NCBI RefSeq assembly: GCF_003334335.1
Contig: NZ_QOWQ01000040.1
DNA length: 39,682 nt
Strand: one strand, 5' to 3'
Source of the DNA: Escherichia coli
GTDB taxonomy: Bacteria; Pseudomonadota; Gammaproteobacteria; Enterobacterales; Enterobacteriaceae
This document shows positions 6,001 to 9,000 of the stretch, piece after piece. Positions within the stretch are counted from its first letter, which is position 1; the number at the start of each line of letters is the position of its first letter. A program made the position numbers.

Positions 6001-9000
6001 CTGCAAGCCAGAGGTGACGACCCACTGGTCGCCGATGGCTTTGCTGGCTTCAATTTCGCGTAGCTGCACGACATCGTCTTTATCCAGAATGAGCGCCGTT
6101 GCTTTACCCTGGGCGTTGTGGGTGACGCCTTCCTGCGGCACCAGTAATACATTCTGGCGGCTACCTTCATCCACTAATGCCGTGACGTACATGCCAGGCA
6201 GCAAGTCACCATTTGGGTTGGGGAAAATCGCCCGTAACGTCACGGAGCCCGTGGTTTCATCCACTGTCGGGTCGGAGAATTTCAGCGTGCCGGTCTGGCT
6301 GTAGCGTTTACCATTTTCCAGATTGAGCTGTACTGGCGTACTGCCCTGAACCTGTTTGATTTGCCCACTGGCGACCTCTTCTTTCATGCGTAAGAAATCT
6401 TGCACCGACTGCGTGAGATCGACATAAATCGGGTCCAGACGTTGTACGGTAACCAGCGAATCTGCCTGATTAGCGGTAACGAGTGCGCCGACGGTCACCG
6501 ACGATTTCCCGCTGACGCCCGTAATCGGCGAGGTGACATTCGCGTATTGCAGATTGATCGTCGCCTGTTCAACAGCCGCTTTGGCGACGGTGACATTGGC
6601 TTCTGCTTCATTCAACTGGGTGCGCGCGGTGTCGTAATCCTGACGGCTAACGTAGTTGGTCTTCAGCAACGATGCCTGGCGGTTAAAGGTGATGCGGGCA
6701 TTGCTGGCGGTAGAGAGCGCTTTCGCCAGCGAGCCTTTGGCGGAGTTTAGCTCGGCCTGTAAAGGTGCAGGATCAATCTGATACAGCGAATCGCCCTGGT
6801 TCACTTTATCGCCTTCGATAAAGTTGCGTTTAATGATAATACCGCCCACCTGGGGACGTATCTCGGCAACTTCATAAGGAACGGTTCTACCGGGCAATTC
6901 GCTCAACACATTGACCGAACCGGGGGAGAGTGTGACGACACCGACCTCAGGCGTCATGGCGGCGGCGTTTTCCGCCGATTTGTCATCGCAGGCGGTGAGC
7001 ATCGCGCCGCAGAATAACAACGGTATTAACAGCTTTCTTCTTCTGTTCATTTTAGTCCCTGAAAATTCTTGAGAAATAACGGTTCTTTAAATTGCGCGCG
7101 AGGAGAGATATGAGGGATTTACAGACCAGCGGCATAGTGGGGTTGTCAGCCAGTAAGGTGGGATACAGGCACAGTGATCGACATGGTGAGGTCAACGACA
7201 AAAAAAATGTTGCCGTTCTGCCAACAGTTCCTGCCAGCATTCGGGCAACGAAGGGTTCTACTGGTGGATACACATACCAGGGGAATAAAGTCGTTTTAGC
7301 CTCTCCTTTAGTAATCACCGGGGGTAATGAAATCAGCATCTGCATCCCTCGTCATGCCAGCCATCAATTTCAGTTGCTTATGTCCTGACTAAAAATAAGA
7401 TGTGATACCCAGGGTGACGATGTCGCTCATACGTCTTAGTTTCAGCTTGTACATAATGTTGAATTTCTGAATCTTTAATGTTTGTTGCGAAATATTGAGC
7501 GTCGACGTGATATTGCTTTCATTTTTATTTTTCAGAATCAGTTGCATAATTTTGAACTGATTATGTGAAAAACATAATTGTGAATTCTTATGGGGCAAGT
7601 GTTTACCATAAGTAATCTCAAGAAGATTTTTGATACTTTCTTTGCGGCTAACAAAATAAATAGGCGCTTTAGCTTTTAGTTTACTGATGTGATAAGGTGC
7701 CAAAACAATAATTCTCTCGGCATCTAATTTCTCCAGAAATTTAATCGCTTCTTCATCAAGGATATGATTGTGATAGGTATCAATGATAACCTTGAAGGGT
7801 TTATTGCCTACTTTTTTGATCTCTGACAGGGAATTGATTTTTATCATTTCGTGATTATCTTTCAACTGCCAAAAGCCCTGTAAAAGAAAAGAATCTTTCG
7901 TCATGAGAAAAATCATAACTTGCTCCTTAGCCGTTATCGTTTCGAATATGTCATCCTTTTCATTATTTACATCCTTGTCCGAATCGTTGTTCAATATAGT
8001 AAACGCCTATAAGAACTTTACCCTTCGTGAACTAATACGTCTATTAACACTAATCAATACTTCAGATTTATCCATCACGCACTCCATATATTGATCCTAA
8101 GTAAGATTCCTGGTTGTTATCAGCTTGTAAATAGCAAACAAAAAGTTAACGTTTGCGGATTACTGCCCAAGAATAAGTTATCAATAACCAGTTTGTGATC
8201 TCTGAAGAATATTACTAAAGTTAAAATGTAATCCGATTTAAATATCGAGTCTCCTTGTTTCGACTTAAGCTGGCAATTGGATTGCCAGCTTTCTTTTAAC
8301 GCATTGAAATTACCTGAGTAAATAACGCATTCATGTCTTCAGGTTTTTATATAGCGTCTGGAGACACGGATATTTATGCAATGTAATCAACGCCAGTTGC
8401 AAAAAAATGAACCCGGATTACTTATTTAACCGCCCATAGCATCAACGCTTACGGAACTCTTTGTTCACTTTCCCACAGCACTTTTAAAACATTAAACCTG
8501 ACTACGGAAAATATCAGCCATGATAATGTTTGAAATGGCTAATTTGCCATAGAGTGAAAAAAATTAGATGAAATTCAGTAGGTTGAAATAATCACTAGCA
8601 GGTAATTATTTCAATGATAGTGCGCAATTGATCTACAACACTGCGTAGCGGAGAGAGTATTAATCGGATCATAGTCACATCAAGTGACTATGATCCGGGT
8701 GACAACCGGGGTAATTATTGCTGCTTAACGAACAAACTGGCGAAGCTGAACAGGCTGGCGGCGCTAAATATCAGTTCAATTCCCACCAGTGTGGAAACCA
8801 GCGTTACAGACACCATCGGCGTTGCACCAAGGAATATCCAGGCAATGACGATATCCAGCACACCAATAACGAGCTGTAGCCAGCTGCCTTTCATTGAACG
8901 CTGACGATACCAACTCATCAGGCGAATAACCCCTGCAACACAGAACAAACCGGCAATAAATGCCGCAATGGCAAAAATGCCCAGCTCCGGTGCGCGGATG

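Follow-up and report, generated by a model that had tools for sequence, protein, structure and literature searches.

Transcripts that depend on Rho have been described as ending precisely after stable stem-loops (Dar & Sorek 2018, NAR 46:6797, PMC6061677), which carry neither a U-rich tail nor an upstream A-tract, are followed by a mild excess of C over G, and guard the RNA against polynucleotide phosphorylase (PNPase) and RNase II (PMC6061677). We analysed a stretch of 39,682 nucleotides of Escherichia coli DNA (contig NZ_QOWQ01000040.1 of assembly GCF_003334335.1; hereafter, the window) in which the acid-resistance gene hdeD is followed by a perfect palindrome, and found that this palindrome is most likely an ordinary, previously undiscussed member of that class, whose RNA 3' end was already present, uninterpreted, in a published table. 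The hdeD hairpin resembles the described members in its precise end, the lack of a U-tract and an A-tract and the predominance of C over G downstream; a bicyclomycin-sensitive signal further on may be another point of resemblance. It departs from the typical member in its perfect 14-bp stem, at the long end of the range. Its end probably depends on Rho and on PNPase or RNase II.

The inverted repeat spans positions 8665-8697 and consists of two 14-nt arms, 8665-8678 (CGGATCATAGTCAC) and 8684-8697 (GTGACTATGATCCG), which are 100% complementary and separated by a 5-nt spacer. This is exactly as the initial annotation had it. On the hdeD strand the hairpin begins 17 nt after the stop codon. The RNA of this strand reads CGGAUCAUAGUCAC-UUGAU-GUGACUAUGAUCCG, followed by the tail AUUAAUACUCUCUCC. 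Six of the 14 pairs are G-C, so that the stem-loop has the stability and G+C content seen in intrinsic terminators; folded alone, the 33-nt hairpin yielded about -23.5 kcal/mol, and the minus-strand RNA from 8620 to 8730 yielded -35.7 kcal/mol (z = -4.76), a stability attained by none of 200 shuffled sequences. Among perfect inverted repeats with a loop of 3-10 nt it was the longest in the window, and a perfect 14-nt repeat appeared in just 1 of 100 dinucleotide-preserving shuffles of the window; for uniform base composition, our own arithmetic gives an expectation of about 0.001 per window. The length had been called unusual for a terminator, and it is indeed at the long end, but it falls within what terminal stem-loops show. 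The absence of a strong U-tract was confirmed: the first 8 nt after the stem contain 3 U, and the hairpin was not called by a consensus terminator scan of the window, which required at least 5 of 8. Neither the tail on the hdeD strand (AUUAAUAC) nor the sequence upstream of the stem (CCCCGGUUGUCACC) provides a U-rich tail or an A-tract, and the same holds in all Escherichia species. Each arm of the E. coli palindrome also contains a GATC Dam site (8667-8670 and 8692-8695).

A steady-state RNA 3' end immediately past the stem was found in published Term-seq data, which list an end at position 3657621 (+) of MG1655 (U00096.3) with about 1150 reads (Adams et al. 2021, eLife, PMC7815308, Supplementary file 1). 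The string around it is CCCCGGTTGTCACCCGGATCATAGTCACTTGATGTGACTATGATCCGATT[A]ATACTCTCTC. In the window this end is on the hdeD strand, 4 nt beyond the stem, and ends immediately after the stem-loop are also typical of the described class. Coordinates were converted by the relation that window and MG1655 positions add up to 3666282, and the conversion was checked with two further Term-seq ends, the one internal to hdeD (3657126, falling at 9156) and that of the small RNA (sRNA) gene arrS (3657985, falling at 8297, where the U-tract of arrS has its last U); the position of the gadE ATG in U00096.3 agreed as well. The published classification of the 3657621 end is 'orphan', with 50 nt past the stop codon as the cut-off for a 'primary' end (PMC7815308), and the sole reason for this label is its distance of 54 nt from the hdeD stop, which exceeds that cut-off. 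The initial annotation had proposed Term-seq mapping together with conservation as the test of the palindrome's role, and both outcomes, a published end at 8661 on the hdeD strand and a conserved helix, favour an RNA-stability hairpin at the 3' end of hdeD. There is no hdeD entry in the TERMITe supplements; a chromatin study and a study of hdeD expression heterogeneity do not mention the hairpin, and the study of CyaR and RprA acting on hdeD concerns the 5' untranslated region (UTR) only, which is 35 nt long (PMC5861431). The hdeD-internal end used in the above check (131 nt into the open reading frame (ORF), ~1500 reads; Adams et al. 2021) falls in a small terminator-like hairpin flagged by the scan at 9148-9160 (-), which suggests a premature 3' end within hdeD.

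Comparison among genomes indicated that it is the helix, and not its sequence, which is conserved and under selection. A divergent allele with 88% identity over 241 bp is present in about 1300 E. coli genomes; its loop is changed from UUGAU to AUUAA and its outermost C-G pair has become U-A on both sides, the 13 inner pairs remaining unchanged. Individual E. coli strains showed a substitution in the loop (720632), an outermost A-G mismatch (ETEC1721 and 07_3636) or a C-to-U change producing a G-U wobble in the hdeD-sense RNA (E7-1N7). At the species level, the set comprised E. albertii, E. whittamii, E. sp. E1V33, E. sp. MOD1-EC7003 and two divergent 'E. coli', and the hairpin was found at the same place in all these lineages. 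In four lineages (E. albertii, E. whittamii, E1V33 and strain E69) GGAU/AUCC is replaced by GCCU/AGGC, so that two further pairs have changed on both sides. Both GATC sites are lost through these compensatory changes (GGAUC/GAUCC to GCCUC/GAGGC), and GATC is therefore not the conserved feature. Over 11 distinct sequences, 95.5% of the cells were standard pairs and double changes had occurred at 3 of the 14 pairs (C-G/U-A, G-C to C-G and A-U to C-G). The covariation score was 0.226, compared to 0.100 ± 0.021 in shuffled alignments (0 of 500 reached 0.226) and to at most 0.073 in controls slid along the sequence, and RNAalifold independently recovered the same helix from a wider alignment. In the distant species the stem differed from K-12 at 18-32% of positions, the spacer and the downstream 60 nt at 42-75%, and the loop at 40-100%; E. 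albertii, E. whittamii, E. sp. E1V33 and E69 also have about 16 additional nt in the spacer between the hdeD stop codon and the hairpin. The preservation of a helix rather than of a sequence points to a nucleic acid that folds, and away from an operator bound by protein.

The sequence that follows the stem is also biased in composition. In K-12 the C/G ratio is 1.7 over the 150 nt past the stem, with 78-nt windows reaching 2.3, and it ranges from 1.8 to 2.7 in six other Escherichia lineages, in which this sequence has diverged by 40-50%, about half in the more distant ones. The tails are all rich in C and poor in G (for example ACUCUCUCC, ACACCUACACC, ACACUCC and ACUCCC), and this bias, like that of Rho utilization (rut) sites, is the one described for the stem-loops of Dar and Sorek. 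In the bicyclomycin experiment of the same Term-seq study, a Rho termination region was reported at 3657733 (+), with upstream/downstream reads of 101/28 in untreated cells and 251/475 with bicyclomycin (Rho score 6.8, p = 2e-20, the score comparing 800-nt windows; PMC7815308, Supplementary file 2). This position corresponds to 8549 in the window, 112 nt downstream of the 8661 end. About 50 nt past the hairpin on the hdeD strand there is a second, imperfect inverted repeat (8583-8614; 13 nt, 92%; TTGAAATAATCAC/GTAATTATTTCAA). Across Escherichia, one of its arms (CATTGAAATAAT when read in the hdeD direction) has been kept unusually well, but without its complementarity; it may serve as a binding site for a protein where the gadE region has its upstream limit.

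The reading that we regard as probable is that the palindrome is an RNA hairpin which marks and shields the hdeD mRNA at its 3' end, with Rho terminating transcription in the untranslated stretch before the gadE promoter P3 and exonucleases trimming the RNA back to the stem. According to this model, hdeD would be transcribed through the palindrome and the 14-bp stem-loop would fold in the 3' UTR, just clear of the stretch covered by a ribosome that terminates on the stop codon. With no U-tract to release it, RNA polymerase would mostly run on past the hairpin into untranslated C-rich, G-poor sequence, where Rho could load and terminate hdeD transcripts some 100-200 nt further on, before the P3 start site. 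The ragged ends made by Rho would then be trimmed as far as the foot of the stem by PNPase and RNase II, both 3'-to-5' exonucleases, and this trimming would generate the 8661 end, leaving the hdeD mRNA with a defined and protected 3' end 4 nt past the stem. In this way the hairpin may raise the stability of the hdeD mRNA. Whichever way transcription terminates, it is very likely that the hairpin functions as RNA at the 3' end of hdeD.

Four observations should be weighed against this model. The 800-nt downstream window of the Rho score includes the gadE promoters P3, P2 and P1, and with bicyclomycin the downstream reads (475) exceeded those upstream (251), so that part or all of the signal could reflect gadE transcription induced by bicyclomycin instead of read-through from hdeD. 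The 8661 end is listed in only one of the three growth conditions, M63 glucose as deduced from its place in the file. The non-canonical pairs in the helix do not clearly prefer one strand: the G-U pairs of E7-1N7 and E69 are possible only in the hdeD-sense RNA, and E. whittamii, E1V33 and E. albertii, which count as one shared lineage, have a mismatch that is A-C in the sense RNA and G-U in the antisense. Finally, no results obtained in exonuclease or rho mutants were found for this locus.

The confounding of the Rho evidence by the gadE promoters leaves some room for a non-canonical intrinsic terminator, in which the hairpin itself would trigger release at the weak AUUAAU tail, perhaps with the help of NusA or of pausing induced by H-NS, and the +4 end would be the true termination point, lightly trimmed. 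The RNA 3' end immediately past the hairpin, a folding energy of -23.5 kcal/mol, on par with strong terminators, and the A/U-rich start of the tail are all compatible with it. Canonical intrinsic terminators such as that of arrS likewise combine a stable hairpin directly after the gene with a 3' end a few nt past the stem. Nevertheless, the hdeD hairpin differs from the arrS terminator in lacking a U-tract, in the C-rich tails of the sister species and in an end at +4 as against +6 inside the U-run of arrS. With U at 3 of 8 positions it stays short of the roughly 5 or more of an intrinsic terminator, it escaped the scan and it has no upstream A-tract, and the tails of the sister species are even less U-rich (ACACCUAC, CGUCAUAC, UAUAACAC) though the hairpin is kept. 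Moreover, +4 is nearer to the stem than the usual release point at 7-9 nt, and the conserved excess of C over G downstream fits Rho. On balance we consider intrinsic termination, the chief rival to the above model, unlikely, with a modest chance of being correct. The arrS terminator hairpin itself lies at 8267-8291 (+) and is followed by UCUUUU, the ArrS 3' end at 8297 being supported by up to ~983,000 reads. On the gadE strand the arrS palindrome has its own Term-seq 3' end (MG1655 3658019, window 8263, -), in the gadE T3 leader and again with no U-tract, which is either a second hairpin-protected end or a product of ArrS-directed processing.

The palindrome had also been proposed as a protein-binding site and located at the far upstream edge of the gadE control region. 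Its location is correct: counted from the gadE ATG (7916) it covers -749 to -781, next to hdeD in the hdeD-gadE intergenic region, which measures 798 bp and is bound by many regulators (PMC3708157). A perfect palindrome in such a place, with two Dam sites in its E. coli arms, could be an operator for a dimeric transcription factor regulating gadE from a far-upstream site or hdeD itself. The comparative data did not support this proposal, since the half-sites covary instead of being conserved, GGAT/ATCC having become GCCT/AGGC on both arms in four lineages with pairing kept and GATC lost. In chromatin immunoprecipitation data of exonuclease resolution (ChIP-exo) for GadE, GadW and GadX, the three regulators covered (Seo et al. 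2015; coordinates of U00096.2, offset by -1977 from U00096.3), no peak was found on the palindrome (3655608-3655640), and the nearest ones were GadW/GadX sites at 3655735-3655770 and 3655819-3655843, near P3 and about 95 bp away. The palindrome is single-copy in every genome, unlike a regulon-like motif, and even the farthest gadE start site, T3 (P3; -566, window 8482), is over 180 bp downstream of it, the others being T2 and T1 (PMC3708157). An operator is therefore very improbable. No match to the consensus sequences of CRP, FNR or LexA-type operators was seen by eye either, the TCAC-N5-GTGA orientation being the inverse of a CRP site.

Equally doubtful, and in our view highly unlikely, is a bidirectional or antisense element, in which the hairpin on the plus strand of the window would keep read-through transcripts of arrS or of cryptic promoters from entering hdeD in the antisense direction. 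The palindrome folds about equally on both strands (-25.6 vs -24.6 kcal/mol), the A-C mismatch of the above three species is a G-U pair on the plus strand, and a weak terminator-like motif comes next on that strand at 8694-8710. This small hairpin is, however, not conserved in the divergent E. coli allele, and the wobble pairs of two lineages can form on the hdeD-sense strand only. Besides, for none of the three conditions do the Term-seq data list a 3' end of the opposite strand close to the hairpin (Adams et al. 2021, PMC7815308), and ArrS ends efficiently at 8297, 368 nt before reaching it.

Other identities were also discarded. REP/BIME elements that stabilise upstream mRNAs are similar in being intergenic palindromes at the 3' ends of genes, able to block exonucleases; they are dispersed in many copies, in contrast with the single locus per genome found here in 5413 genomes, with no repeated family and no Rfam match. 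To our knowledge the hairpin bears no resemblance to the REP consensus. A covariance-model scan of 7300-9600 with Rfam 15 (E <= 1) returned nothing relevant, the only hit being a chance match to a CRISPR direct repeat (CRISPR-DR) inside gadE. The 14-bp helix is shorter than typical RNase III substrates of ~20 bp, and an Hfq-dependent 3'-UTR sRNA was excluded because there is no U-tail.

The search for the palindrome elsewhere in the genome, suggested by the initial annotation, was run with a 43-nt segment and gave one locus only in 5413 of the 5426 complete E. coli genomes, the two 'places' reported per genome being the two strands of the same palindrome; no other copy was found in any E. coli genome. 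Within the window, allowing up to 3 mismatches, there was no second copy of an arm beyond chance. When metagenomes were scanned with a degenerate core pattern, the palindrome turned up downstream of hdeD in Escherichia and nowhere else, the remaining matches being unrelated AT-rich chance hits. One 8.6-kb contig labelled Flavobacterium paronense CECT 8460 (NZ_JAUFQN010000010.1) encodes an HdeD with 98% protein identity to that of K-12, and its hairpin and downstream 60 nt are identical to those of K-12; this hdeD locus almost certainly stems from E. coli DNA contaminating the assembly. In NZ_CM135183.1 (strain Z1324SEC0014) the 241-bp query matched two separate places, with the break at query position 195, about 8754 in the window and inside hdeD, a pattern that suggests an insertion interrupting the 3' part of the gene.

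Outside Escherichia, the hdeD homologue of Kluyvera cryocrescens NBRC 102467 (57% identity) converges with a gadE-like gene of 176 aa (43% identity). Between the two genes, right after the hdeD homologue and at 2082-2107 of the locus, there is a different perfect 11-bp hairpin, ACGATCTACCC-GAGC-GGGTAGATCGT, again with no U-tract, which may be of independent origin. Since it follows hdeD despite the inversion of the gadE-like gene, the terminal hairpin goes with the hdeD 3' end and not with the gadE promoter.

The window corresponds to the acid fitness island of E. coli K-12 type in reversed orientation, as established from ORF calls and the annotation of identical K-12 DNA (Table 1). Further along, two identical perfect 11-bp hairpins, AAAAAACCGAC-TTTGC-GTCGGTTTTTT, are located at 16709-16735 and 16940-16966, 231 bp apart. 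Given that their sequence equals the agrB terminator string in the Term-seq table, they are probably the duplicated terminators of the agrA and agrB sRNAs.

Table 1. Position of the hdeD terminal hairpin, associated transcript features and neighbouring genes in the window.
Feature	Position	Strand	Remarks
mdtE	5893-7050	-	
gadE	7389-7916	-	
Untranslated AT-rich stretch with C > G; candidate zone for Rho loading and termination	8515..8664	-	C 32, G 19; contains the Rho peak 8549
Term-seq RNA 3' end	8661..8661	-	MG1655 3657621; 4 nt 3' of the stem base on the hdeD strand
Stem-loop in the hdeD 3' UTR	8665..8697	-	5' arm 8697-8684, loop UUGAU 8683-8679, 3' arm 8678-8665
17-nt spacer from hdeD stop codon to hairpin	8698..8714	-	variable
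hdeD, 190-aa acid-resistance membrane protein; transcript ending at the hairpin	8715..9287	-	
hdeA	9542-9874	+	
hdeB	9978-10316	+	
yhiD	10368-11027	+	

The hdeD hairpin is, if the above reading holds, a clean, covariation-backed example of protective hairpins devoid of a U-tract, and its significance is chiefly one of annotation. It fixes the hdeD mRNA at about 660 nt, made up of a 35-nt 5' UTR (PMC5861431), 573 nt of coding sequence with its stop codon and a 3' UTR of 54 nt, and the 'orphan' Term-seq peak is explained as the hdeD 3' end. The first ~50 bp of what has been called the 798-bp gadE promoter region are thus hdeD 3' UTR, which is relevant to the design of gadE promoter fusions and also of 3' tags on hdeD, because an insertion directly after the hdeD ORF parts the gene from its probably stabilising hairpin. 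A more far-reaching role, which we think quite improbable, is that hdeD and the sensory region of gadE are separated by a tunable insulator made up of the hairpin and the Rho zone. If this were true, then, as GadE activates the hdeD promoter, conditions weakening Rho termination (acid stress, loss of H-NS bridging or altered hdeD translation) would let hdeD transcription enter gadE-mdtEF. This would constitute a hidden positive-feedback arm in the acid-resistance switch, and could add to the correlated cell-to-cell heterogeneity reported for hdeD and gadE.

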